This document shows positions 1 through 9,600 of a stretch of DNA of 9,600 nt, piece after piece. The position numbers and the translations under genes were made by a program. The stretch comes from a virus (Duplodnaviria; Heunggongvirae; Uroviricota; Caudoviricetes), in IMG/VR virus record IMGVR_UViG_2609460125_000002, positions 1 through 9,600 of that record. One strand, written 5' to 3'. How positions within the stretch are numbered: position 1 is the first letter of the stretch; the number at the start of each line of letters is the position of its first letter. Below the pieces are notes generated by a model, which had not been told where the DNA came from, did no database searches, and saw only the letters and a program-made list of their open reading frames with translations.

Positions 1-274
1 AACATCAATGTCGCGTAAAGGTAACTGTTACGACAACGCTCCGATGGAAAGCTTCTGGGGAACGCTGAAAAATGAGAGCCTGAGCCACTATCGTTTAATA
101 ACCGGGATGAAGCCATCTCAGTAATACGGGAATACATTGAGATTTTCTACAATCGTCAGCGTCGTCACTCTCGTCTGGGGAATATCTCCCCGGCAGCCTT
201 CAGGGAAAAATATCATCAGATGACTGCTTAAAAAAAGAACAAATGGTAGTGTCCGCTATTGCCAGTACACCTCA
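1..274 (+). mobile_element. 3' portion of an IS3-family insertion sequence (OrfB C-terminus plus right terminal region); exact IS not identified; right boundary approximate (269-274)
   Basis: Translation of 2..124 gives TSMSRKGNCYDNAPMESFWGTLKNESLSHYR, the conserved DDE-region signature of IS3-family OrfB. The adjacent integrase reading frame becomes non-integrase sequence at about 270-275. Terminal bases ...CAGTACA / ...CCTCA fit the TG...CA tips of IS3-family ends. Confidence 0.6.
2..231 (+). pseudogene. IS3-family transposase OrfB, C-terminal fragment with a frameshift
   Basis: Frame 2 reads ...GNCYDNAPMESFWGTLKNESLSHYRLITGMKPSQ* (stop 122-124). Frame 1 from 97 reads NNRDEAISVIREYIEIFYNRQRRHSRLGNISPAAFREKYHQMTA* (stop 229-231), the expected continuation of the same domain. 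A single missing base near 95-97 (cgttt-aataacc) joins the two. Confidence 0.6.
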
Positions 275-939
275 TCAAGGTCTGTAACGTTGGAACGGCG
301 AAGGCCTGTCGTGATTGCAAACATGACCACAGGGAAGAAATGAGGAGCAATTTCTGCAAACAGGCGCTTCGATTCCTCCTCTGTAAGCCATCTGATTCGT
401 CCATTCTTAACGCGTGGTGTTGATATTTTGGGCGCCCTGTCAAGCCATCCCCATTCAACAGCCATATTGAGAATAGCGCGAAGTATTGCCAGATGCCGCG
501 TCTTCGTTCCTTTGCTTGCCAGCTTTGGTTTATACTCCGGCACTGGCTTGCCAAGCCGCAAACACCTGTCCCGGCTCATTTCCCAGTTCAGGCGATGGCG
601 GCGGTTTTCCATCCCGTCTACCGCCTCCATTATTTTTTCTGTTGTTATGTCAGAGAGAATGGTTTCTCTGAAGTGCAACATCCAGAACGATATAATGCTC
701 TTGTCATCATCAATGGACTTCTTATCCGATTTCTCACGCAGCCACCGTATGCAGGCTTCCTTGAATAGCTTTTTCGGCGATTCCCCGAGATTTTTTACTC
801 TCCACGCTTCTGCTTTCAGACGATCGTGAAGTTCTTGCGCTTGCCTTTTGTCCGATGTTTCAAGAGAGCGTCTAACTCTTGATCCATCTGGCGCGACGAA
901 ATCGCAGTGCCACGTGCCACCGCGTAGTTTGATTGACAT
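256..939 (-). pseudogene. int: Phage tyrosine integrase, N-terminal fragment (227-aa ORF); catalytic C-terminal domain absent
   Basis: ATG at 939 preceded by AGGAGG (8 nt spacing). Protein has the N-terminal/core-binding region and ends just after a box-I-like motif AITTGLRRSNVTDL; no box II (HxxR...Y) follows. The last ~6 codons and the stop (256-258) appear to be supplied by the IS end. Confidence 0.7.
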
Positions 940-1235
940 GCTTTAACCTCCTGCACATCAACCGCATTCACCGCGCTATTGTGTCTCACAGACTTAAGCG
1001 CCGCAATGCAGTCTGACTTGCAAATGCGATATGGACTTTTAGGTTTATCTGGATTTATCTTTGCGGCCTGAAGTCGTCCACTTCGTATCCACTGTGTGAT
1101 AGTGCCTTTGTCTACCTTCAGATACGACGCAGCTTCTTCACGAGTGAAGATTTCTTCTTCCACCTGGAATCTCCATTTGTTGGATTGACATGATTGCGGT
1201 AGGTCTGGATATCTTGAGAAATGAACTGGCCTCAT
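816..1235 (-). CDS. xis: Excisionase-like helix-turn-helix protein (Xis/AlpA type); start uncertain (ATG 1235 with weak RBS, or GTG 1163 with GGAGA RBS)
   Basis: Motif FTREEAASYLKVDKGTITQWIRSGRLQAAKI resembles excisionase-family HTH domains; position immediately upstream of int. The 3' end overlaps int by 124 nt in another frame. Confidence 0.5.
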   Translation of the reverse strand: MRPVHFSRYPDLPQSCQSNKWRFQVEEEIFTREEAASYLKVDKGTITQWIRSGRLQAAKINPDKPKSPYRICKSDCIAALKSVRHNSAVNAVDVQEVKACQSNYAVARGTAISSRQMDQELDALLKHRTKGKRKNFTIV

Positions 1236-1262
1236 CGAGTGTGAGGCTGTGTGATTCCATAG

Positions 1263-1607
1263 TTAGTCCTTGCGTAGCTCGCTGATTCTTCTGTAAGTCT
1301 CTGGTGCTTTGTTTCCGTGTATCTTCATTTCAGACTTCAACAGAGCAACGAGGGAATCCCATTCGTTGAGGATGCCTTTGAATGCCGGAACGCGCTTTGC
1401 AACCTTGCCGAATGAATCTCTGATTTCTGGAATCTGCTCAACAAGTGCAACGCATCGTCTGAAATCGGCTGCGTCATGGGGAGCGCCGAAGTGATGACCA
1501 TAGATATTCTTTTTCAGGCCACATGCGATTGAGGCAAGAGTTGCGCTACTGATGCCAACATCGCCAGTCGATTGCCATTTCAAAACCTTCATAGCCAAAT
1601 CTGACAT
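1263..1607 (-). CDS. Hypothetical phage protein, 114 aa
   Basis: ATG at 1607 with GGAGA 6 nt upstream, directly downstream of a terminator hairpin. The ORF-track start at 1634 lies inside that hairpin and is probably an artefactual extension. Confidence 0.5.
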   Translation of the reverse strand: MSDLAMKVLKWQSTGDVGISSATLASIACGLKKNIYGHHFGAPHDAADFRRCVALVEQIPEIRDSFGKVAKRVPAFKGILNEWDSLVALLKSEMKIHGNKAPETYRRISELRKD

Positions 1608-1617
1608 TTCTTGTCTC

Positions 1618-1645
1618 CAATAAAAAACCGCCATCAGGCGGATTG
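1618..1645 (-). terminator. Intrinsic terminator (minus strand): stem CCGCC/GGCGG, loop UGAU, followed by U6
   Basis: Plus strand 1622-1641 aaaaaaCCGCCatcaGGCGG; on the minus strand the hairpin is followed by UUUUUU and then the RBS of the next gene. The loop contains the UGA stop (1634-1636) of the upstream 55-aa ORF. Confidence 0.5.
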
Positions 1646-1801
1646 GTGTTCTTTCAGTTCTTCAATTCGAATATTGGTTACTTCTGCATGTGCTATCTGC
1701 GCCCATATCATCCAGTGGTCATAGCAGTCGTTGATGTTCTCTGCTTCGATAACTCTGTTGAATGGCTCTCCATTCCATTCACCTGTGACTCGGAAGTGCA
1801 T
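1634..1801 (-). CDS. Small hypothetical protein, 55 aa (MHFRVTGEWNGEPFNRVIEAENINDCYDHWMIWAQIAHAEVTNIRIEELKEHQSA); not in ORF track
   Basis: ATG 1799-1801 preceded by GGAG (7 nt spacing), itself directly after a hairpin + U-rich terminator. The overlapping 61-aa track ORF (1708..1893) lacks such signals. Confidence 0.4.
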   Translation of the reverse strand: MHFRVTGEWNGEPFNRVIEAENINDCYDHWMIWAQIAHAEVTNIRIEELKEHQSA

Positions 1802-1810
1802 TTATCATCT

Positions 1811-1872
1811 CCATAAAACAAAACTCGCCGTAGCGAGTTCAGATAAAAGAAATCCCCGCGAGTGCGAGGATT
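1811..1872 (-). terminator. Tandem terminator-like hairpins (minus strand)
   Basis: Hairpin AACTCGC-cgta-GCGAGTT (1822-1839) followed on the minus strand by UUUGUUUUAU; second hairpin AATCC-N12-GGATT (1851-1872) followed by UCUUUUAU. Confidence 0.4.
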
Positions 1873-1901
1873 GTTATTCACCTTTGACGGCAAGTTGTAG
1901 G

Positions 1902-2435
1902 TTAGCCACGGTTAACCTCCTGAGGCGGTTCTGGTAGAGGCATCCAGTGGGTTACTCCATGCCATATACCAGTTAAGGTTTCAAACCTTGGCTCTCTGCC
2001 TTTCTGTGTCTTGGCATATTCATTCCTTGTATATACGCATTGTCTAACTGCATATCCATTCCATCCAATAACTGTTTGTCTAATTTCCGGCATCCGCTCA
2101 CTACAGCTTATCCAACCATCCGGAGTTACCGGCACTTGCTGGGCGGTATAAAGCGGTGTTATATCTGCCCGAAAATTACATGCTTTATGCAGCCGCACCC
2201 ACCGTTCGACTTCTGCTTTGTCAGAATACATACCAGTGAACGTGTTATATTCACGGTCAATTTGCGTGAATGTTACCTTCCACGCCACCGGCTCTGCTTC
2301 CAGCGATGCCAGTGCGATACGCAGGGCAGCCAGGATATTCCCCTGGTAATCATCAAGCCCGAAAGGAAGCTCATCACGAACGCTTTCATAATCGTTGATA
2401 GCCTGCTGCAGCCATTCTCTTGTGATAGTGCTCAT
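1902..2435 (-). CDS. DUF551-domain phage protein, 177 aa
   Basis: C-terminal region DGWISCSERMPE...GIWHGVTHWMPLPEPP matches the recalled DUF551 signature (W...THWMPLPEPP). ATG preceded by AGGAGAGG; start overlaps the upstream stop (ATGA). Confidence 0.65.
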   Translation of the reverse strand: MSTITREWLQQAINDYESVRDELPFGLDDYQGNILAALRIALASLEAEPVAWKVTFTQIDREYNTFTGMYSDKAEVERWVRLHKACNFRADITPLYTAQQVPVTPDGWISCSERMPEIRQTVIGWNGYAVRQCVYTRNEYAKTQKGREPRFETLTGIWHGVTHWMPLPEPPQEVNRG

Positions 2436-3166
2436 GATGCCTCTCCTTTACCTGCTTCGGTGACGTTTATTCCAGCGTTGTGCAGTGCCTCAAGAACCTG
2501 ATGCTGCCTGTAAACCATTTCAGTGTGGTAAGGCTTGTCAAAATCGACGCGATGCAACATGCTATAGCATTGCGGAAGCACAACCTCCCGCAACTCCAGC
2601 TCAGCAATGCGCTTCTCTGCGGCTTCCAGCTTCTCGCGCATATCGTCAACGTACTCGACCAGAGATCCGCCAGCAGGAATTTCGCATTCCTCGACCAGTT
2701 GGAAGTAGATATCAGCTGCGGCCCGTGTGTTGCTATGCCTAGCGTCGCCCATCTCACCTTCACGAAGAGCATCGCGTTCGGCGGTAAGATTGGCTATTTT
2801 GCTGTCTTTGCCTTCCAGCTCAACGCGCAGCCTCCCAACCGTAAGCGCAATATCCTCGTTCTCCTGGTCGCGTGATTTGATGTATTGCTGGTTTCTTTCC
2901 CGTTCATCCAGTAATGCCAGCACGGTAGCTGGACTGGCTGCTGCGATGAATTCAGCATTGGCCTGCTGTTCCATTTGGAAATCTTCATCGAAACCGCTTT
3001 CAGGATGCGCTCCTTCAATTCTGCAAATGGGAATATATCCAGCAACTTCTCGATGAATTAGCGCATCATCACCATCAAATTGGCCCTCTCCATATTCGAG
3101 CGACCACGCCCCACACGTTGCTTTCTCTGCCTTTTCACGCAGTGCCTGATAATCAATCTGGCTCAC
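2432..3166 (-). CDS. Ead/Ea22-like family phage protein, 244 aa, with central coiled-coil
   Basis: N-terminus [22 protein letters not shown]...ANAEFIAAASPATVLALLDERERNQQ resembles the Ead/Ea22-like N-terminal domain common in enterobacterial prophages. GTG start overlaps the upstream stop (GTGA). Confidence 0.6.
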   Translation of the reverse strand: MSQIDYQALREKAEKATCGAWSLEYGEGQFDGDDALIHREVAGYIPICRIEGAHPESGFDEDFQMEQQANAEFIAAASPATVLALLDERERNQQYIKSRDQENEDIALTVGRLRVELEGKDSKIANLTAERDALREGEMGDARHSNTRAAADIYFQLVEECEIPAGGSLVEYVDDMREKLEAAEKRIAELELREVVLPQCYSMLHRVDFDKPYHTEMVYRQHQVLEALHNAGINVTEAGKGEAS

Positions 3167-3408
3167 TGGTTGCCCCCCTGCTTTTCTGCCTTCAACACCA
3201 TGCGAGAACCATCATCCAACTCCCAAGCGATCTCACCACCTTCAGCCATGACCAGTCGCCACACCAATTGAGCAGCCTCATTGGTAACATCACGACCTGG
3301 ATCATTGCCAACGCGCATACGTCCACCTTCAACATCGCGCATTTTTGCCAGCATGATAGTTTTTGATAGCGGTGAAAAACCAAGCTGTAGTCGTGCTGAA
3401 TTACTCAC
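3163..3408 (-). CDS. Hypothetical phage protein, 81 aa
   Basis: GTG start at 3408 with AGGAGG 7 nt upstream; GTGA overlap with the upstream stop; ends ...QGGNQ. Confidence 0.5.
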
Positions 3409-3572
3409 TGGTTGCCTCCTTTGCGCAACATCGCATTCAGATATTTGTTTTGATTTACTGATGGAAAAGAATTTCTCTTAAGCAATTCCTCTCTCGATGG
3501 CATTGGCTTTACGCGTTGGCGAATAATCATTTTTGCCGGAAGAATGCCGGGATTGTATGCAAGTCCTCTCAT
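3405..3572 (-). CDS. Small hypothetical protein, 55 aa ([55 protein letters not shown])
   Basis: ATG at 3572 with GAGGAA 7 nt upstream, immediately after the stop of the 97-aa gene. The longer track ORF (to 3722) overlaps that gene by 140 nt and is probably an extension artefact. Confidence 0.4.
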
Positions 3573-3582
3573 GGTAAATTCC

Positions 3583-3876
3583 TCAGTCATTACTGATAGC
3601 GCCATAGCGTGAGCGGTAATTACGCAGGCGCGGGTCAATTTCAGGGAAGTGGGTGTATGTGGCTTTGCGGAATGGTCGGATTGATGTCTGGTAAATTCGC
3701 TCGCGTTCTTCTTTCTCTGCAAGCCATATACAGTGGCGAAATCCCTTTTCCTCTTTCGTTTCCTGCGGTAGCGACATTATCAGGTCGTAGTTTTTCCTGA
3801 ATTTATCCAGCACCTCCGATACGGAATTGCCGGAACAGCGGCGCGCGTCGTCCGCACCATATAGAGGCGCTGGCAT
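3583..3876 (-). CDS. Hypothetical phage protein, 97 aa
   Basis: ATG at 3876 with AGGAGAA 5 nt upstream; no recognisable motif. Confidence 0.5.
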
Positions 3877-3889
3877 GATTTTCTCCTGA

Positions 3890-4396
3890 TTAAATTGCGT
3901 GAATAGCGTGACGAGGGAAGGGGAGAGTTACTGGTGCAAAGGGTATATCGTCGTCAAAATCCATAGGAGGTTCGTTGTGTTGTGCTGGTGATGATTGCTG
4001 CTGTGGCTTCTGTGATTGCCTGCTGGCTGCTTGTTGTTTGCTGTCGCCAATGCCGCCAAGCATTTGCATCACGCCATTAATTCCGACATGAACCTCGGTT
4101 GTGTAACGGTCTTGCCCTGACTGGTCTTTCCACTTTCTGGTTCTCAGCATTCCCTCGAAATAAATCTGATCACCTTTTTTCACATACTGCCCCACGACCT
4201 CAGCCAGTTTCCCGGATACAGCAACACGATGCCATTCAGTCAATTCCTTTTGCTCGCCAGTATTTTTATCTCGCCATTGTTCTGATGTGGCTATTGTCAG
4301 GTTAGCGAACGCTGTTCCTGATGATGAGTATCGGACTTCCGGGTCTTGTCCTACCCGACCAAGGATAATCACCTTATTTACGCCTCTGCTTGCCAT
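3890..4396 (-). CDS. ssb: Single-stranded DNA-binding protein (SSB), 168 aa, with a 15-residue extension after the DDDIPF tail
   Basis: N-terminal OB-fold sequence [23 protein letters not shown]...TEWHRV...[12 protein letters not shown] and the acidic tail ...[13 protein letters not shown] are textbook SSB. The ORF then continues [15 protein letters not shown] before TAA at 3890-3892. Confidence 0.9.
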
Positions 4397-5104
4397 TTAT
4401 GCCACCTGTTTTAGTTCGTTAACTCTGATGTTCATTACCTGAACGCATTTAGCCTGCGCCTCCTCGTTGCCAGCCATTAATTGCCAGTCACGCTGATAAC
4501 GCTCGATGAGTTTTTTCTTGTCAGTTTCTGTTGACGCATAATCGCTGAAGTCTTTCAGGATTTGCTCGCAGTCAACCGATGGAGATTTCTGGTTGGTATT
4601 TTCTGGTGATGGTTTGTTATCTGATGCTGGGATTGCCCATCCCGGCAGCGATGGAGGGAGCCAGTAAAATCCTGTTCCATCCTTGAGTTTTGCCCTGTGC
4701 CATCCCTGCTTTTTATCGAGAGATGTTTGTGCGAAACCTTCCTCAAGGTTATACAGATACCGACCGATTCCCCACTGAACGGCAGCGCGCTTCATTGCAC
4801 CGGAACGACCACCTTTGACGGCTTCTACCTGCGTGTTTTCAGCAGCATCCCATTTGGTTACCCATTCGGAATCAATCTTGATTGATATGCCGCATTCAAC
4901 GCCGCCGTTGTTGGGAATATCGCGGTATTCATTGCGCCATCCTGCTTTGCCGCAAACATCGTCCAGGCGTTTCATGATTGCCCTGTTCGTGACATAAGCC
5001 AGCACCATAGCCCACACTTTTCCATCGCGTGTTTTACCGCTTTGCTGTATTCGCCATTCGATATCTTCAGGGCTGAATGGCTCATCGAATTTATTCAAAT
5101 CCAT
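4397..5104 (-). CDS. Rad52/Sak-type single-strand annealing protein (recombinase), 235 aa
   Basis: Motifs GAMKRAAVQWGIGRYLY and GKAGWRNEY resemble the Rad52 annealing-domain signature; sits immediately upstream of ssb (TAAATG junction), a typical phage recombination module. RBS GAGGTG. Confidence 0.65.
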   Translation of the reverse strand: MDLNKFDEPFSPEDIEWRIQQSGKTRDGKVWAMVLAYVTNRAIMKRLDDVCGKAGWRNEYRDIPNNGGVECGISIKIDSEWVTKWDAAENTQVEAVKGGRSGAMKRAAVQWGIGRYLYNLEEGFAQTSLDKKQGWHRAKLKDGTGFYWLPPSLPGWAIPASDNKPSPENTNQKSPSVDCEQILKDFSDYASTETDKKKLIERYQRDWQLMAGNEEAQAKCVQVMNIRVNELKQVA

Positions 5105-5203
5105 AATTCACCTCAGAATGGACATGGCCCAAGGAAATAACGCTGGTTTAATACTTCGACTCTGGACAAATTAAGGCATACCCGCATTCCTTCGCGGTCG
5201 CCA

Positions 5204-5362
5204 TTATGGCGATACCAGAGAGCTTTCTGCGTGTACATGCGTCTCTGTAACTTGCTCTCCTTCACTGTGGTTGCAAGTGACATGCATATCTCCTTCGTTA
5301 CCGATTAATTCTTTCATCTGACGAATGAATTCTTCGTCTGACCAGTTATCTGTAAAACTCAT
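5204..5362 (-). CDS. Small hypothetical protein, 52 aa (MSFTDNWSDEEFIRQMKELIGNEGDMHVTCNHSEGEQVTETHVHAESSLVSP); not in ORF track
   Basis: ATG overlaps the stop of the kil-like gene (ATGA) with AGGAA upstream. Lies between kil and the annealase, where P22 carries arf; no sequence evidence for that identity. Confidence 0.35.
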   Translation of the reverse strand: MSFTDNWSDEEFIRQMKELIGNEGDMHVTCNHSEGEQVTETHVHAESSLVSP

Positions 5363-5511
5363 TTCCTGCGATACCACGGAAGGTTGATAGCTGATTTCAT
5401 CGCTTTATTTGCTTCAAGCCACATTTTTGAATCACCAATAAATCTGGCTATTACTGCTTTGTTCTGTGCAGCACGAAGCATCTGGTGATTGATGGCTATT
5501 TCATTGCGCAT
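5359..5511 (-). CDS. kil: Kil-like host cell-division inhibitor, 50 aa (MRNEIAINHQMLRAAQNKAVIARFIGDSKMWLEANKAMKSAINLPWYRRK); not in ORF track
   Basis: Core VIARFIGDSKMW closely resembles lambda Kil (IATFIGDEKMF, as recalled); position directly downstream of the cIII-like gene as in lambda; GAGG 8 nt upstream of ATG. Confidence 0.5.
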   Translation of the reverse strand: MRNEIAINHQMLRAAQNKAVIARFIGDSKMWLEANKAMKSAINLPWYRRK

Positions 5512-5627
5512 AATAAGACCTCAACTCTTTTCCATCCGTCACGTAATTTACGGGTGATTCGCTCAAGTAAAGATTCATTTAGTTGGAAGGCACCCATGCG
5601 AGCGCCTCCCGCGATTGCGTAAATCAT
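5496..5627 (-). CDS. cIII: CIII-like FtsH protease inhibitor, 43 aa (MIYAIAGGARMGAFQLNESLLERITRKLRDGWKRVEVLLCAMK); not in ORF track
   Basis: Contains ESLLERITRKLRDGWKR, matching the essential central helix of lambda CIII as recalled, and an MxYAIAG N-terminus; AAGGAA RBS 7 nt upstream. Confidence 0.6.
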   Translation of the reverse strand: MIYAIAGGARMGAFQLNESLLERITRKLRDGWKRVEVLLCAMK

Positions 5628-5651
5628 GGGTGGTTCCTTATATTGGTTTTA

Positions 5652-6620
5652 TTAGTAGGTTATTTTTGTTGCGAATACTTCGCCTTTTACGATGGCTGTT
5701 ATGATATTTTTAGCAACATCTTCTGATGCACCAACCTTGATAAGGTCAACAAGTATTTTGTTATTTACTTCTTTCCGGTGAGCTTTATCTTTTGCTCTAC
5801 GCTCTTCTTCGTCCTTGATTCTTTTTTCTTCTGCTATTCTGGCTTGCTCTTTTGCTTCAGCCTCGCGACGGATTCGTTCAGCCTCCTCCTGTGCTTTTCT
5901 GCGTTCTGCTTCAATTGCCGCATGCTTTTCTCTTTCAGCTCGTTCCGCCGCCTCTTTTGCTTCGCGCTGTGCTCGTTGCTCGGCTTCAATGCGTTCACGC
6001 TCTGCTCGTTCCGCAGCGGCCTTAGCTTCTGCTTCTCGCCTTGCTGCTGCTTCAATTTCGGCTTTTGCCTTTGCTTCGGCTTCTGCTCTGACTTTCTCTT
6101 CAGCTTCTCTTTTTAAGCGTTCTTCATGCTCTCGCTTTTCCTGCTCCGCTTTGAGTCTTGCCTCTTCTCTTTGGCGGTCAAATTCGCGATCCATCAAAAT
6201 CGCTATTTCATGGTCAGACTCAATTTGCTTTGCGAGAGCTTCAGCTGCTGCCTTAGCTTCTTCTTCGGCTTTAATCCGCGCCTGCTCCTCCTCATAATCA
6301 GTAAGAGGCTGGCGCGCCTTGGCTTTCAGTTCATCAAGGCGATCACGCACTGTCTTGCGGTTGGCATCAATTAGCTTTGGAATTTCCTTCAGTTCAGCAA
6401 CAAGGTCTTTGCCAAGACCATCGAGATATGTTTTCGTCTGCGCAACTTTATACGCCAGAGAAGCGATCTCCTTTCTGCCCTTTGCCGTTGTGATATCAGG
6501 CACAAAGGACATAACTTCACGTTCAACCTTTTGGAGAATTTCTTCAATCTGGTCGGCAGACTTAAATACAGTCATTGCATTTGCTTTTTCAATAACAACT
6601 AAATCTGTTACTTCACTCAT
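5652..6620 (-). CDS. Hypothetical phage protein, 322 aa: N-terminal domain, ~150-residue E/A/K/R-rich coiled-coil (TolA-like low complexity), short C-terminal domain
   Basis: ATG at 6620 with GGAGG 5 nt upstream, directly after a terminator hairpin; the track start at 6674 reads through that terminator. The underlying DNA is repetitive and produces spurious plus-strand ORFs. Confidence 0.6.
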   Translation of the reverse strand: MSEVTDLVVIEKANAMTVFKSADQIEEILQKVEREVMSFVPDITTAKGRKEIASLAYKVAQTKTYLDGLGKDLVAELKEIPKLIDANRKTVRDRLDELKAKARQPLTDYEEEQARIKAEEEAKAAAEALAKQIESDHEIAILMDREFDRQREEARLKAEQEKREHEERLKREAEEKVRAEAEAKAKAEIEAAARREAEAKAAAERAERERIEAEQRAQREAKEAAERAEREKHAAIEAERRKAQEEAERIRREAEAKEQARIAEEKRIKDEEERRAKDKAHRKEVNNKILVDLIKVGASEDVAKNIITAIVKGEVFATKITY

Positions 6621-6630
6621 ATATCCTCCA

Positions 6631-6662
6631 TCAAAAAAATTGCCCTCACACTGGAGGGCAAA
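6631..6662 (-). terminator. Intrinsic terminator (minus strand): stem TGCCCTC/GAGGGCA, 6-nt loop, followed by U7
   Basis: Plus strand 6633-6660 aaaaaaaTTGCCCTCacactgGAGGGCA; on the minus strand the hairpin precedes UUUUUUU and then the GGAGG RBS of the 322-aa gene. Confidence 0.5.
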
Positions 6663-6721
6663 GAAGATTTCCAATAATCAGAACAAGTCGGCTCCTGTTT
6701 AGTTACGAGCGACATTGCTCC

Positions 6722-6749
6722 GTGTATTCACTCGTTGGAATGAATACAC
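6722..6749. repeat. Inverted repeat GTGTATTCA-N10-TGAATACAC
   Basis: Perfect 9-bp arms at 6722-6730 and 6741-6749 in the 134-bp intergenic gap between the 67-aa and 322-aa genes; not followed by a U-run. Confidence 0.4.
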
Positions 6750-6754
6750 AGTGC

Positions 6755-6958
6755 TTATTCGCGAGCTTTGAGCATTGCGTCTGCAAACTTATATGCAGCG
6801 CTTGCTGCATAATTAACAGCTCCATCAGAATCATTATCGATAATCGATGGATTGCTAATCATTGCTTGCATAGCCTTTGCCGCGAAGTAATCACGTAATG
6901 TCGCATCACTTGCCATTTCTGGGCGTTTGATATCTGCTTCATAAAACTCGCACATCAT
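6755..6958 (-). CDS. Hypothetical phage protein, 67 aa
   Basis: ATG overlaps the stop of the upstream 98-aa gene (ATGA) with GGGAGA upstream; no recognisable motif. Confidence 0.5.
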   Translation of the reverse strand: MMCEFYEADIKRPEMASDATLRDYFAAKAMQAMISNPSIIDNDSDGAVNYAASAAYKFADAMLKARE

Positions 6959-7251
6959 TCATCTCCCAGAGCCTTGCTGATTGCTGCAAGACCTTTATTA
7001 ACAGCTCCATACCATTCTGGATATGTTGTCGTTGTTCTATTTTTGGATTGCTTAAGTAATAACTGAAGTGCTTCGAGAAGGTCAGGTGCTGCCGCTATTA
7101 GATTGGCATCTTCAATACATTGAACTTCCTCACAGATTGCAATATACGAACGCCAGCCTGCGCCATTTTCAAGTGAGTCTGCCTGGATGATTTTAATCTC
7201 ATCGCCATCCATCATTATTTCCCACTTACCTTCAGTACCTTTAAATTCCAT
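6955..7251 (-). CDS. Hypothetical phage protein, 98 aa, sharing a short motif with the Ead/Ea22-like N-terminal domain
   Basis: ATG with AGAGG 6 nt upstream after a terminator; motif EDANLIAAAPDLLEALQ parallels ANAEFIAAASPATVLALL in the 244-aa protein. Confidence 0.55.
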   Translation of the reverse strand: MEFKGTEGKWEIMMDGDEIKIIQADSLENGAGWRSYIAICEEVQCIEDANLIAAAPDLLEALQLLLKQSKNRTTTTYPEWYGAVNKGLAAISKALGDE

Positions 7252-7271
7252 GTTAGCCTCTGTTGTTTATG

Positions 7272-7298
7272 CCAAAAATAAAGGCCGACTATGCGACC
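7272..7298 (-). terminator. Intrinsic terminator (minus strand): 5-bp stem with one G-U pair, loop CAUAGU, followed by UUUAUUUUU
   Basis: Plus strand 7274-7298 aaaaataaaGGCCGactatgCGACC; the loop contains the UAG stop (7289-7291) of the 207-aa gene. Confidence 0.4.
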
Positions 7299-7912
7299 TC
7301 GGAAGGAAGTCCAATCATCTTATTCAAATCTTCTACCCGTAAAGCAGGAAGTGCTGTACTTGCTTTATCTGCTTCTTTTGGTAGCAATTCTTTGCTTTCA
7401 GGCCAAACTTCAATAAGTCGCTTAACTGTTGTGACTGAGTTCAAAGCAGCCCATACATTTGATTCGATATCCTTTTTCTTGGCTTCAAGTTTTTGTTGCA
7501 ATGCGCAGATTTCATCAAACCTTTTTGTTATTTTGTGTTCTGCATCAAACATGCATTTATCTTTGGTTGGAGTAGGGAGAAATATATCTTCGCCATTGCC
7601 GTCTTTCCCATATGAATGCCATCCAACCCTTCTGCCAGATACAGTCAGATAAATTGAAGTAGAACGAAATTCGTATGAGTAAAATGAACATCCCATCTTT
7701 TCAAGTTCTTCACTTATAGCTACCAACTTGGATGATAACTGATCCACTTCCTCAGTTTTCTTTTTACCGCCAAACGCAATAACTCTGGCGTCAAGTGCAA
7801 GCTGGTTCTTTAACTTTGTTACTTCTTCAAGTTCAGTGAAAACCCCAGACTTAATTAAAGCGTTACGAGCGATTTCCTCTTTCATTCTCGTAGTTAAGCG
7901 GATTGATGACAT
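7289..7912 (-). CDS. Hypothetical phage protein, 207 aa, unknown function
   Basis: ATG at 7912 with GAGG 8 nt upstream, after a terminator hairpin; the track start (7927) is a TTG extension. No catalytic motif or strongly hydrophobic segment recognised. Confidence 0.55.
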   Translation of the reverse strand: MSSIRLTTRMKEEIARNALIKSGVFTELEEVTKLKNQLALDARVIAFGGKKKTEEVDQLSSKLVAISEELEKMGCSFYSYEFRSTSIYLTVSGRRVGWHSYGKDGNGEDIFLPTPTKDKCMFDAEHKITKRFDEICALQQKLEAKKKDIESNVWAALNSVTTVKRLIEVWPESKELLPKEADKASTALPALRVEDLNKMIGLPSEVA

Positions 7913-7936
7913 ATTAATTCCTCTCAAATAAGAAAA

Positions 7937-7962
7937 TAAAGGCCACCATCAGGCAGCCTTGT
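7937..7962 (-). terminator. Intrinsic terminator (minus strand): hairpin with UGAU loop followed by a U-rich tract
   Basis: Plus strand 7939-7960 AAGGCcaCCatcaGGcaGCCTT preceded by aaaataaa; the loop contains the UGA stop (7949-7951) of the ral-like gene; same loop sequence as the terminator at 1628-1641. Confidence 0.4.
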
Positions 7963-8143
7963 TGTTCTGTTTACCAAGTTCTCTGGCAATCATTGCCGTA
8001 GTTTGTATTGCCCATTTATCGACATATTTCCCATCTTCCATTACAGGAAACATTTCTTCAGGCTTAACCATGCATTCCGATTGCAGTTTGCATCCATTGC
8101 ATCGCTTGAATTGTCCACACCATTGATTTGTATCAATAGTCAT
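7949..8143 (-). CDS. ral: Ral-like restriction-alleviation protein, 64 aa, Cys-rich
   Basis: Four cysteines at residues 9, 15, 18 and 24; strongly resembles lambda Ral as recalled; located in the leftward operon downstream of the N-like gene, as ral is in lambda. Confidence 0.5.
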   Translation of the reverse strand: MTIDTNQWCGQFKRCNGCKLQSECMVKPEEMFPVMEDGKYVDKWAIQTTAMIARELGKQNNKAA

Positions 8144-8275
8144 ACGGATAGTCCTGGTATTGTTCCATCACATCCTGAGGATGCTCTTCGAACTCTTCAA
8201 ATTCTTCTTCCATATCTCACCTCAAATAAGTGGTTTGCTGCCAAAACAATGAACCATCCGGAAATTCCAGATAGT

Positions 8276-8503
8276 TCATAATTCACTCTTCAATACTTCC
8301 AACTTACTAATCGCCGATAGATATCCGCGCTGATAGGGCATCATCATTCCTTCGAGCTTGCCACTTCTTAACTCCTCCCTGAGCAATTGTATTGCTTGAT
8401 CAATAACCTCTGCCTTAGCGTCCTTTATGGCTTGCTTGCGGGGCTTTGCTTTCTGCTTTGGCAGATTTCTCAAGCATGATGGAATGTATGTCTGATTCAC
8501 CAC
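8276..8503 (-). CDS. Hypothetical phage protein, 75 aa (GTG start immediately after the N-like stop)
   Basis: ORF begins at a GTG directly abutting the TAA of the upstream gene (TAAGTG), with GAGG just upstream; lysine-rich, no recognised motif. Confidence 0.4.
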   Translation of the reverse strand: MVNQTYIPSCLRNLPKQKAKPRKQAIKDAKAEVIDQAIQLLREELRSGKLEGMMMPYQRGYLSAISKLEVLKSEL

Positions 8504-8776
8504 TTACCTCGCTGTCAGTTGTTTTGATTTCCGGTAGCCTGCCGCGTAAATGGCTACGTTTGGCAGGCAAATACTTCCACTGCATTCATCTGCCTTCTTG
8601 CAGCGAAGGCTTCCGAGTGATGCTGCTTTATCTGCTCTGACGCAACCAGAGAGCTTTAGCGCAATTTTTCGTGCCAGTCGCTGCTCTTGCATTGCCTGTT
8701 CACGTTGAGCCTGTCTGCGTGCTCTGCGGCGATTTCTGGCGTTATCGTCAGCCAGATATGTAATGACTACTGCCAT
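8504..8776 (-). CDS. N-like transcription antitermination protein, 90 aa, with an arginine-rich motif
   Basis: ATG at 8776 with GGAGGT 4 nt upstream; N-terminal DDNARNRRRARRQAQREQ resembles the arginine-rich boxB-binding motif of lambdoid N proteins; first gene of a terminator-punctuated leftward operon. Confidence 0.45.
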   Translation of the reverse strand: MAVVITYLADDNARNRRRARRQAQREQAMQEQRLARKIALKLSGCVRADKAASLGSLRCKKADECSGSICLPNVAIYAAGYRKSKQLTAR

Positions 8777-8934
8777 GTTGACCTCCGATGATTGACTTTG
8801 GCGGTGACGCGACGGGTGCTTATCTTCCGGTTGCTGTCGTGCAGCTGCACTTCACGTCACCCTGAAGTGGCACACTGAATTTGGCCACCTGAACAGAGGT
8901 GATATGCTCACCTCAGAACAACACAGGTGCTCCA

Positions 8935-9600
<666 letters not shown>

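Follow-up and report, generated by a model that had tools for sequence, protein, structure and literature searches.

Between the early genes of this phage operon lie GC-rich hairpins, each followed by a U-run, and the preceding gene's stop codon repeatedly falls in the loop. Are these terminators, and is the placement of the stop codon itself a regulatory device? The window, meaning the whole 9,600-nt stretch of DNA analysed, carries in order N, ral, cIII, kil, a Rad52-like gene, ssb, abc2, ea genes and int. In gene order and DNA it matches the operons transcribed early and leftward in lambda, P22, Sf6, HK620-type and Stx phages, and by this comparison we identify the region as a mosaic P22/lambda-type pL operon. 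The first gene (8504..8776, minus strand) encodes a 90 aa N-family transcription antitermination protein (Pfam PF25694 N_peptide, E 2.1e-15; phrog_271, E 9e-34), and its DNA is 97-98% identical to N of N7, HZ41, mEp213 and HF4s.

A sequence-only reading had called the region a pL-type, N-antiterminated operon. This was right in kind, as the N-family first gene, the gene order and DNA, and the annotated homologous terminators all indicate, but it does not extend to full N antitermination in this copy, which lacks nutL. An IS3-family insertion sequence (8863..9600, plus strand; 98.6% identical to 'IS3 family transposase' loci of E. coli genomes and, from a reading of its protein, apparently IS911-like) lies between nutL and N, with no more than 86 nt separating it from the start of N downstream, and phage homology begins at 8862, bordering the element. 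Intact relatives have nutL (boxA GCTCTTTAACA, boxB CCCGCCGAAATGCGGG) immediately upstream of the point equivalent to 8863; neither box is present anywhere in the window, and pL and nutL are missing from its copy of the operon. At the opposite end, an IS600-family (IS3-like) element end (1..286, minus strand) truncates the integrase gene, and phage homology to mEp213 and ECP1 ends at 275. With IS3-family elements at both ends, one parting N from nutL, the copy is probably crippled and its N antitermination probably disabled. As IS elements have severed the operon from pL and nutL and from int, it probably belongs to a decaying prophage.

The five intervals originally noted do hold GC-rich hairpins with U-runs on the minus strand, six hairpins in all (T1, T2, T3, the tandem T4a and T4b, and T5). 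We scanned the phage part (1200-8862) under strict settings, accepting only unbroken stems of 5 bp or more that included three or more G-C pairs, with loops of 3-8 nt and six or more T in 8 bases. This gave seven hits on the coding (minus) strand against 0.32 +/- 0.58 expected (maximum 2 in 200 dinucleotide shuffles) and one on the plus strand. All seven minus-strand hits sit at gene junctions, and comprise the six noted hairpins plus one that had been missed, H0 (hairpin 8279-8249, with tail 8241..8279, minus strand), between orf75 and a small acidic ORF/ral. H0 is a 14-bp A/U-rich hairpin with a U-rich tail (UGUUUUGG; -18.6 kcal/mol, z -6.2), holds the orf75 stop TGA (8278-8276) in its 5' arm, and is identical in ECP1, PM7 and mEp213. 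Folding z-scores of the sites range from -2.4 to -6.2. Folding of the minus strand bore out T1, T3, T4a and T4b (-11.9 to -13.9 kcal/mol), while T2 and T5, the latter with a 5-bp stem, are marginal as predicted terminators. Each of the five noted sites also precedes the ribosome-binding site of the next gene, as had been proposed, with a Shine-Dalgarno-like sequence and ATG within 10-25 nt (ATGs at 7912 for T1, 7251 for T2, 6620 for T3, 1801 for T4b and 1607 for T5). Elements with ~95-100% identity to the hairpins are present in hundreds of lambdoid phages, lambda included. Covariation lends the stems little support. Counting each variant type once among these sequences, which are at least 95% alike, there are 86 stem-breaking, 51 pair-keeping and one double compensatory changes, and at this level of identity loops are ~1.5-fold more variable per nucleotide than stems. 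Comparison with annotated records indicates that the hairpins are already known as terminators of lambda/P22-type early-left operons, homologues of T1, T3 and T5 being annotated in mEp234, Sf6, P22 and L.

The ral (restriction alleviation) gene (7949..8143, minus strand; Pfam PF11058 Ral, E 2.9e-45) ends after ...NNKAA with its stop TGA (7951-7949) in the loop of T1 (hairpin 7960-7939, with U-run 7931..7960, minus strand; AAGGCUGCC-UGAU-GGUGGCCUU then UAUUUUCU; -13.9 kcal/mol, z -3.9), the homologue of which is labelled 'rho-independent terminator' in the mEp234 record. The unrelated gene H0090 of VT2-Sakai and mEp234 is also ended by this hairpin, and Ral and H0090 both terminate ...NKAA-stop inside its loop. 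Downstream of T1 lies an Nmad5-family gene cassette (7289..7912, minus strand; 207 aa; Pfam PF18757 Nmad5, E 7e-72). The Nmad5 domain stops at residue 203, and the final three codons (GAG GTC GCA) and the stop TAG (7291-7289) lie within T2, the stop in its loop. T2 (hairpin 7300-7281, with U-run 7273..7300, minus strand; GAGGUCG-CAUAGU-CGGCCUU then UAUUUUUG) is the weakest hairpin, with two G-U pairs in its stem (-8.3 kcal/mol, z -2.4; 7 of 200 shuffles fold equally well). T1 and T2 have in common an outer stem (GGC/GCCUU), the end of the 3' arm, the U-run and what lies downstream. T1 of lambda, HZ41 and VT2-Sakai leads straight into the sequence found here after T2, and the 3' half of T2, together with the sequence downstream, matches the stretch of lambda that begins right behind the ral hairpin. 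The block 7932-7259 is common as one unit to mEp235 and E. coli EC17GD31, the 41-bp island 7299-7259 containing T2 occurs alone behind five different upstream genes, and a gene of mEp213 ends KAA-TAG in T2.

The same arrangement recurs at the other end of the operon, where the window at 1877-1618 and lambda at 29361-29102 share 96.9% identity. Here two tandem terminator-like hairpins precede orf55, T4a (hairpin 1872-1851, with U-run 1843..1872, minus strand; -13.1 kcal/mol, z -4.8), which is also in lambda and shows the double compensatory change, U-A to G-C, and T4b (hairpin 1840-1821, with U-run 1813..1840, minus strand; -11.9 kcal/mol, z -5.1), directly before the orf55 ribosome-binding site. 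The lambda lambdap35 homologue orf55 (1634..1801, minus strand; phrog_676, E 3.5e-39) ends after ...EHQSA with its stop TGA (1636-1634) in the loop of T5 (hairpin 1641-1628, with U-run 1620..1641, minus strand; CCGCC-UGAU-GGCGG then U6AU; -9.6 kcal/mol, z -2.8). The likeness noted earlier between two hairpins with loop UGAU is real, T1 and T5 sharing GCC-UGAU-GG(U/C)GG. Terminators are annotated at the T5 homologue on the operon strand in the phage L record; the P22 record assigns the hairpin to the opposite strand as t'I, terminator of the antisense aI RNA.

Between T2 and T3 lie a variable cassette and a conserved block. The cassette (6755..7251, minus strand) consists of orf98 and orf67, overlapping by ATGA (phrog_1273, phrog_2201), and is absent from Sf6, N7, IME10, CUS-3 and lambda, in which the T1/T2 tail directly joins the block starting at 6754. 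The block 6754-6621 (134 bp) is present in 327 phage records and shares 96.3% identity with the ral-ea10 interval of lambda. It opens with an inverted repeat (6712..6752, minus strand; GUGUAUUCA...UGAAUACAC, lacking a U-run), 100% identical in 15/15 compared loci, lambda included, which forms the 5' edge of the recurrent breakpoint 6754/6755 and abuts the 5' end of a homologue of the lambda sRNA LPR1/PreS (6633..6721, minus strand; ~88 nt, the 5' end at 6721 being inferred from this length by counting back from the U-run). With the inverted repeat included, 6754-6633 folds at -46 kcal/mol. In lambda, LPR1/PreS is Hfq-dependent, lies between ea10 and ral, has forms of ~88 and ~68 nt and ends at tL2a. 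T3 (hairpin 6661-6640, with U7 6632..6661, minus strand; UUGCCCUC-CAGUGU-GAGGGCAA then U7; -13.2 kcal/mol) is by homology tL2a and the 3' end of the PreS/LPR1-like RNA. Its homologue is annotated 'terminator; homology to phage lambda; tL2A' in Sf6 and as a rho-independent terminator in mEp234, and common T3 variants retain the stem. An Rfam search that included DicF gave zero matches anywhere in the window. The sequence-only reading had recognised neither T3 as terminating a known sRNA nor the hairpins as mosaic joints.

T3 raises the possibility that the other hairpins, too, act mainly after transcription and set differential expression within the polycistronic RNA, either as exonuclease-protecting 3' stem-loops of the upstream cistron or by forming the Hfq-binding ends of additional sRNAs derived from 3' regions. 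Lambda provides exactly such a module in PreS, which Hfq binds and which ends at tL2a. Every site is a hairpin plus U-run, as is typical where Hfq sRNAs end, and in lytic growth the hairpins would mostly lie inside long RNAs because N-modified polymerase reads through. However, the lambda RIL-seq study named LPR1 as the sole sRNA of the early-left operon (LPR2 and 6S being in the late operon), and T1, T2 and T5 would be melted again and again by ribosomes that finish in their loops, so we regard this as a rather doubtful general account.

Homology among relatives repeatedly ends at the hairpins. In 13 loci, picked for overall similarity only, 48 of 126 homology ends (38%) fall within a hairpin and U-run +/-10 nt, which make up 5.1% of the sequence. 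A further 33 of the 126 fall at gene starts that lack a hairpin, which account for 7.8%, and junctions are counted here as non-independent events. Homology breaks at 7932/7933 (T1) in 8 of the 13 loci and at 1618-1622 (T5) in 7 of them. A set of 271 loci, gathered via anchors beside T1, T4b and T5, gives the same peaks. Contexts vary correspondingly, with at least 8 downstream of T1, ~10 different genes downstream of T3, 12 contexts upstream of T4a and ~8 downstream of T5. This concentration could mean that the inverted repeats are purely recombination linkers, short homologies for module exchange with no role in transcription; 'bsq' boundary sequences overlapping the hairpins are annotated in the Sf6 and CUS-3 records, and such sequences have been cited as a proposed mechanism of mosaicism (PMC3029335). 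Against this, all seven sites are operon-oriented with U-runs on the transcribed strand only (seven minus-strand hits to one plus), other hairpins take the place of T4a before T4b in some relatives with the U-run unchanged, high-frequency variants preserve stems, and tL2a is a known termination site. A role in recombination alone is thus highly improbable.

The three in-loop stop codons lie where the sequence-only reading had placed them, and the earlier proposal was that a terminating ribosome would cover the 5' arm of the stem. Coverage is expected, though of more than the 5' arm: since the 3' arm ends 9-13 nt past the first base of the stop, a ribosome with the stop in its A site would cover practically all of the hairpin. 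The stop lies within the hairpin or at most 6 nt upstream of it in every context seen, and the RNA 3' end is ~13-17 nt from the stop codon here, whereas the E. coli median from CDS end is far longer, at 48 nt (PMC12207403). At lambda tR2, placing a stop codon within a few bp lowered termination from ~0.9 to <0.1 via the leading ribosome (PMC4824070), and coupling of translation to termination at the present sites is plausible as an instance of this published effect. A stronger version holds that these are selected translation-gated terminators in which the stop is kept in the loop and upstream translation decides termination, giving N-independent control of downstream cassettes. It would accommodate the stops in three loops and in the 5' arm of H0, as well as the loop variant TGAT to TAAT, which keeps a stop. 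Yet hairpins occur with no ORF reading in (26/44 T2 copies, 35/180 T5 copies and up to 26/122 T1 copies), and in ~40% of sampled copies T1 is of the degenerate lambda type, weakened to -4.3 kcal/mol by two disruptive changes though ral still stops there, so T1 is not maintained everywhere. On both counts the comparative data argue against a dedicated, conserved design. The sites contain neither an alternative antiterminator structure nor regulatory codons, and an N-proficient phage overrides the terminators anyway. In lambda without N, transcription already stops upstream. Compactness and cassette fusion suffice without selection, and we consider translation gating unlikely.

The hairpins are, very probably, conserved Rho-independent terminators of the lambdoid (P22/lambda-type) early-left operon, placed at cassette joints, with the stop-in-loop arrangement mainly a by-product. 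In an intact phage, polymerase modified by N at nutL would pass them and unmodified polymerase would halt there; we infer termination at T1, T2, T4a, T4b and T5 on this model. They would set off from one another an N block, several small accessory cassettes (ral, the Nmad5 gene, orf98-orf67 and orf55) and a single long recombination block free of terminators. T3 has a second job, demonstrated in lambda, in that tL2a is both terminator and Hfq-binding 3' end of PreS/LPR1. The hairpin-plus-U-run units would also be the fixed elements beside which lambdoid phages swap genes, and because they recur at these joints, a gene fused upstream would often read a few codons into the 5' arm and stop in the loop. 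Given the clustering of breakpoints and the same hairpin behind unrelated genes, the stop-in-loop is best read as a structural side effect of fusing cassettes where the operon is very compact. For polymerase lacking N modification, a closely trailing ribosome is predicted to block the 5' arm and so prevent termination, and the terminators should therefore act chiefly on untranslated or uncoupled transcripts.

Known systems offer several parallels. The DicF sRNA of the dicBF operon of the Qin prophage ends at an intrinsic terminator in a lambdoid immunity-proximal operon with further genes following, and so resembles PreS/T3 as an sRNA ending at an intra-operon terminator, although its sequence is unrelated to the window. 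Morons, genes with their own promoter and terminator between phage genes, likewise place small accessory genes and a terminator between conserved neighbours; unlike morons, no cassette in the window is preceded by a promoter-like site, and with the next ribosome-binding site 10-25 nt past the U-run the cassettes would depend on upstream read-through. The lambda tR2 reporter (Li et al., 2016; PMC4824070) is similar in having a stop 0-6 nt from the hairpin or inside it, but was engineered with the stop upstream of the hairpin, whereas the window has in-loop stops at natural, predicted intra-operon terminators, where N antitermination would normally mask any such effect. The lambda pL operon has the same order N-ral-...-cIII-kil-recombination-ea-xis-int, carries T1, T4a, T4b, orf55 and T5, and holds tL2a and PreS in the ral-ea10 interval that is 96% identical to T3 and its surrounding 134-bp block. 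It differs in that the window has a TolA-like gene for ea10, Rad52-like/ssb/abc2 for gam/bet/exo, extra Nmad5 and orf98-orf67 cassettes, a T1 that is intact where that of lambda is degenerate, and no pL or nutL, through IS insertion. Another parallel is with the bsq elements of the P22-like phages HK620, Sf6 and CUS-3, conserved non-coding stretches at module junctions where breakpoints cluster; Sf6 bsq4 overlaps the homologue of the block comprising the inverted repeat, PreS and T3, and Sf6 bsq2 starts at the end of the T5 block. These are annotated as recombination linkers, whereas here most appear to be terminator hairpins with U-runs, and, unlike in the bsq annotations, the junctions of the window fall at or inside the hairpin or U-run.

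All of the hairpins proposed in the sequence-only reading were found where they had been placed, on the minus strand, the coding strand of the operon, each followed by a U-rich run, a Shine-Dalgarno sequence and the ATG of the next gene. Folded together with their tails, the listed sites yield -8.3 to -13.9 kcal/mol: T1 (7960-7939) -13.9 (z -3.9), T3 (6661-6640) -13.2 (z -3.8), T4a (1872-1851) -13.1 (z -4.8), T4b (1840-1821) -11.9 (z -5.1), T5 (1641-1628) -9.6 (z -2.8) and T2 (7300-7281) -8.3 (z -2.4), the last two being thermodynamically marginal. The stop codons that had been placed in three of the loops are indeed there in the ORF table (7951-7949, 7291-7289 and 1636-1634), and the kinship suspected between the two UGAU-loop hairpins is borne out by the string GCC-UGAU-GG(U/C)GG common to T1 and T5. 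A strict scan of the phage part of the window (uninterrupted stem of 5 bp or more that includes three or more G-C pairs, loop of 3-8 nt, and at least six T in eight bases counted from 0-2 nt past the stem) returned seven matches on the minus strand, all at gene junctions, versus one on the plus strand; 200 dinucleotide shuffles of the minus strand gave an expectation of 0.32 (sd 0.58, maximum 2). The hairpin observation is therefore correct and far above chance. Five to seven of the 8 nt after each hairpin are U, giving the GC-rich stem and U-tract of an intrinsic terminator, and T1, T2, T4a, T4b and T5 are predicted to be Rho-independent terminators; existing annotations of T1 and T5 homologues are likewise predictions. 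The T5 hairpin (1628-1641) also scores on the plus strand, where its tail in the window is T-poor (ATTGGTGTTC); in phage HF4s an upstream A-run would render it bidirectional.

One further hairpin, H0 (8279-8249, minus strand, with a tail to 8241), was missing from the original list. Its 14-bp A/U-rich stem (-18.6 kcal/mol, z -6.2; tail UGUUUUGG) holds the stop codon of orf75 in the 5' arm, and ECP1, PM7 and mEp213 carry the identical element. Two roles are conceivable for H0: that of the first terminator behind the N block, or that of a processing site of the RNase III type. Variation among 271 loci from IMG/VR and GenBank consists almost entirely of single changes, 86 breaking versus 51 keeping a stem when each is counted by variant type, in sequences too similar for a real covariation test. 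Frequent variants retain the stems while many singletons break them, and the one double compensatory change, U-A to G-C, falls in T4a; we therefore did not treat covariation as decisive either way. T1 of the lambda type, about 40% of sampled copies, is degenerate (-4.3 kcal/mol), with the ral stop still inside. Rfam returned no match across the whole window at E up to 1, so that neither the PreS-like RNA discussed below nor the hairpins belong to an Rfam family, and a DicF-like RNA is absent. Two other classes of hairpin were considered and set aside. Leader-peptide attenuators would need competing pairings, and the folds here are single isolated hairpins behind ordinary ORFs of 55-207 aa; integron attC-like sites do not fit hairpins that are short, GC-rich and followed by U-runs on one strand only, and no integrase other than the phage int is close by.

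From 1200 to 8862, almost every long ORF is on the minus strand. The first gene of the operon (8776-8504) encodes an N-family antiterminator (Pfam PF25694, E 2.1e-15; phrog_271, E 9e-34), and profile searches also identified Ral (8143-7949; PF11058, E 3e-45), an Nmad5-family protein (7912-7289; PF18757, E 7e-72) and a DUF551 protein. Annotation of near-identical relatives adds a TolA-like coiled-coil protein, CIII, Kil, a Rad52-like annealing protein, SSB, Abc2, Ead/Ea22-like proteins and integrase, completing a co-oriented early-left set (ral, cIII, kil, recombination genes, ea genes and xis/int) with terminators in between. Read along the minus strand, the hairpins divide the operon into blocks: N to orf75, followed by H0; a small acidic ORF and ral, followed by T1; the Nmad5 gene, followed by T2; orf98 and orf67, followed by a hairpin lacking a U-run (IR), a PreS-like RNA and T3; the genes from the TolA-like protein to DUF551, followed by T4a and T4b; orf55, followed by T5; and orf114 to int. 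Genes inside blocks abut or overlap, with ATGA/GTGA overlaps at 6958-6955, 3408-3405, 3166-3163 and 2435-2432, and the 4.7-kb block from the TolA-like to the DUF551 gene is free of any hairpin plus U-run in the strict scan. The acidic ORF (26 codons, very acidic, MEEEFEEFEEHPQDVMEQYQDYPYDY; 8132-8212, minus strand) lies between H0 and ral, overlapping the ral start, in the position of lambda orf28 and with its own Shine-Dalgarno-like GAGGTGAG. The DUF551 gene stops at a TAA (1904-1902, minus strand) that reads AAA in N7 (~8215), where the frame continues for eight codons to a TGA 6 nt before T4a; the stop in the window is either premature or a polymorphism of this copy.

Pieces of the operon occur at 94-98% identity in 615 phage records, including P22-like phages (N7, HZ41, Sf6, IME10, CUS-3 and HF4s), mEp phages, Stx phages and lambda, and in 4402 of 5426 complete E. 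coli genomes (megablast). No single record spans 80% of the operon region in either set, and by these alignments it reads as a new mosaic built from old parts. IS3-family elements interrupt this copy at both ends. An IS600-family end (1 to ~286) truncates int, and a second IS3-family element, IS911-like by its protein, running from 8863 to the window end at 9600, begins 86 nt upstream of the N start codon. Relatives carry nutL, with boxA GCTCTTTAACA and boxB CCCGCCGAAATGCGGG, just upstream of the point matching window position 8862, and the insertion point directly follows the place where they read ...GCTCTTTAACA...CCCGCCGAAATGCGGGAACCAAAGAGTAGTTGGCTTTG. Neither boxA nor boxB of nutL has a match anywhere in the window, which stops inside the IS element before the region expected to hold pL/OL; nutL may survive past the element, outside the window, in which case transcripts would first have to traverse more than 0.7 kb of antisense IS. 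The exact IS/N junction was absent from 185,579 representative genomes searched for an exact match. IS600 in company with an IS911-like element would fit a Shigella or E. coli host. The proposal of an N-antiterminated pL-type operon is thus right in kind, with N first and a co-oriented early-left set behind it, but fails for this IS-disrupted copy, with no nutL inside the window. The IS between nutL and N together with the truncated int points to a defective, decaying prophage in which the terminators are relics.

Several of the hairpins have annotated counterparts. In local BLAST comparisons of the window with 13 loci fetched by overall similarity, lambda was found to carry T1, which overlaps the ral stop, the entire ~134-bp block ending in T3 between ral and ea10 (96.3% identity over 135 nt), and T4a, T4b, orf55 (lambdap35) and T5 (96.9% identity). 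In the Sf6 record the counterpart of T3 carries the label 'terminator; homology to phage lambda; tL2A' and overlaps a feature called 'bsq4; boundary sequence'. Two 'rho-independent terminators' in the mEp234 record are the counterparts of T1 and T3, the first overlapping the end of the upstream CDS. At the T5 counterpart, the phage L record places terminators on the strand of the operon, and the P22 record assigns this hairpin to the opposite strand as t'I, which ends the antisense aI RNA. Lambda makes an Hfq-dependent sRNA of ~88 nt, processed to ~68 nt, named LPR1 or PreS, which regulates alaS as well as dnaN, raising the latter, and supports the lytic cycle, and whose conservation was defined by at least 92% identity and at most three gaps (10.1101/2024.10.31.621285). 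The block in the window matches the lambda LPR1/PreS region, lies downstream of ral-type genes and ends at the tL2a homologue, and on this alignment a PreS homologue occupies roughly 6721-6633 with T3 as its terminator. The identity of T3 with tL2a follows the Sf6 annotation and the citation of tL2a in the PreS preprint, and it is for T3 only, indirectly through lambda tL2a/PreS, that actual termination has support. Of the 327 phage records with a match to the block (6754-6621), 318 match 80% or more of it and 304 reach 95% identity. IR (GUGUAUUCA...UGAAUACAC; 6712-6752, minus strand) is 100% identical in 15 of 15 compared loci including lambda, and so more conserved than the adjacent genes (~95%). 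Because it ends exactly where an 88-nt PreS would start, IR may set the 5' end of the sRNA by processing. IR is followed by a boxA-like CGCTCGTAA (6711-6703; CGCUCGUAA), with CGCUCUUAA in its place in E. coli EC17GD31. This motif sits within the PreS-like RNA, and a nut-like role was dropped as nothing was found in its support. Phage mEp213 (~1150-1230) has two N genes, with a chimeric recombination joint upstream of the second that lies within two hairpins: the 5' portion of PreS extends as far as the 5' arm of T3 (TTGCCCTCC), and from there the sequence continues as the loop and 3' arm of the nutL boxB hairpin (GAAATGCGGG).

Such joints recur at the hairpins of the window. Across the 13 loci, segment ends repeatedly fall at 7932/7933 (just past the T1 U-run), 6754/6755 (the 5' edge of IR), 6621-6636 (just past T3), 1877-1880 (just before T4a), 1855/1856 (between T4a and T4b) and 1618-1622 (just past the T5 U-run), and a 41-bp island of homology (7299-7259) consists of T2 plus its U-run. 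The hairpins with their U-runs and 10 nt to either side make up 5.1% of the sequence and hold 48 of the 126 segment ends (38%); gene starts without a hairpin (7.8% of the sequence) hold 33. Segment ends are not independent events and nominal p-values are too strong, yet the ranking of hairpin junctions over plain gene boundaries over gene interiors is clear. The same peaks dominate in the 271 loci, a set partly anchored beside T1, T4b and T5, and include the un-anchored peaks at 6750 and 6630. One side of each hairpin is constant and the other varied, with at least eight downstream contexts for T1, five upstream genes for T2, ~10 downstream genes for T3, 12 upstream contexts for T4a and ~8 downstream contexts for T5. 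These are short conserved non-coding sequences with differing flanking genes and breakpoints at their edges, as in the bsq boundary sequences annotated in Sf6 and CUS-3. Some relatives fill the T4a slot with a different hairpin (e.g. AACCCGCCGAGTGCGGGTT) with the same U-run, TTTCTTTTAT. T1 and T2 share the outer stem AAGGC/GCCTT and the U-run, and in other phages the downstream sequence as well: lambda, HZ41, VT2-Sakai and mEp234 run from T1 directly into TGGCATAAA(C/T)AACAGAATAAACAC, the sequence that follows T2 in mEp235 and EC17GD31. For this reason the Nmad5 gene (7932-7300) has the look of a cassette that entered between two copies of one terminator half, and orf98-orf67 (7258-6755) resembles a second cassette, placed a few bases beyond that point. 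We considered whether these cassettes are morons, which would have their own promoters. A consensus scan placed none before any cassette; the single minus-strand sigma-70-like site (5356-5329) is far from them, the window having fewer such sites than its shuffles, and the moron reading was rejected.

The hairpin units often supply the last codons and stop of varied upstream genes. Ral ends in ...GKQNNKAA* and H0090 of VT2-Sakai/mEp234 in ...CNIYNKAA*, both from the AAG GCT GCC TGA of T1, and the two proteins give no BLASTP alignment at E up to 100. With T2, the Nmad5 gene closes as E-(V/A)-A-TAG and an mEp213 gene as K-A-A-TAG, and in the Sf6 gene 34 type a TAA stop precedes the T2 stem by 4 nt. 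T5 ends orf55 as Q-(A/S)-A-TGA, and its block is also present behind Sf6 gene 19 and P22 eaG, where it is a non-coding remnant. Among all collected copies, the loop stop closes an ORF of 40 codons or more in 96 cases for T1 (26 have no such ORF), 18 for T2 (26 without) and 143 for T5 (35 without). The arrangement is thus frequent but not obligatory, and hairpins persist without such an ORF. Given this, and the degenerate T1 of the lambda type, we read the stop-in-loop as a by-product of gene fusion to a common 3' unit in an operon that is very compact, rather than as a conserved regulatory design. The C-termini concerned (7952-7960, 7292-7300 and 1637-1645, minus strand, and homologues) are small and non-polar: -NKAA in Ral/H0090, -SE(V/A)A in Nmad5, -DKAA in the mEp213 protein and -HQ(A/S)A in orf55. 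GC-rich stems naturally encode Ala, but an Ala-Ala end is also similar to known C-terminal degradation signals such as the ssrA tag (...LAA).

A more elaborate alternative, which we consider improbable, is that T1, T2 and T5 are portable 3'-end modules as well as translation-sensitive insulators, with Ala-Ala possibly a turnover mark. Each could unite two or three final codons (typically x-Ala-Ala), a loop stop, a terminator and recombination homology in a single element, into which lambdoid phages could plug any accessory gene in frame. As insulators they would halt untranslated or leaky prophage transcription and pass translated or N-modified transcription. The Ala-Ala ending that they share could in addition mark the accessory proteins for rapid turnover.

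In lambda, N bound at nutL turns the polymerase terminator-resistant. In a functional phage, N-modified polymerase would accordingly be expected to pass the hairpins, as the literature and the boxA/boxB nutL of relatives suggest. For a polymerase not modified by N, distances matter. The first base of the stop codon lies 9-13 nt before the end of the 3' arm and ~17-21 nt before the expected release point, placing the CDS end ~13-17 nt from the expected RNA 3' end at the loop-stop sites of the window; the median for E. coli intrinsic terminators is 48 nt (PMC12207403). At lambda tR2, a stop 5-8 bp from the hairpin cuts termination from ~0.9 to <0.1, an effect that is lost when translation is abolished and fades beyond ~30 bp, and hairpin folding has been argued to need 10-15 nt of free RNA from the A site (Li et al., PMC4824070). 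On these distances, the loop-stop sites should be strongly sensitive to a closely following ribosome: untranslated or uncoupled transcripts would terminate there and coupled transcripts would pass. The sequence-only reading had a terminating ribosome covering the 5' arm of the stem. What holds of that picture is that a ribosome over the 5' arm matters, but it would be the approaching ribosome that counts at the decision point; one parked on the stop would cover the whole hairpin, and could hardly arrive before the polymerase departs. Translation coupling is a reasonable application of a known effect; as a conserved design we regard it as unsupported.

The main use of these results is in annotation: the window is the early-left operon of a decaying lambdoid prophage, with terminators common to lambda, P22, Sf6 and Stx phages, and it adds a copy of the recently described PreS sRNA. 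If the ribosome effect known from reporters also holds at these natural sites, it would account for the way in which intra-operon terminators can silence untranslated leak-through in a lysogen and leave expressed operons unhindered. Beyond the textbook account are the use of terminator hairpins with U-runs as preferred joints of pL-operon mosaicism, and unrelated genes with common hairpin-encoded C-terminal codons and a loop stop. Compared with known systems, the elements themselves, namely the lambda pL terminators, tL2a/PreS and the bsq boundary sequences, are already described; mildly new is that terminator units provide common in-frame 3' ends and are favoured as joints in recombination.
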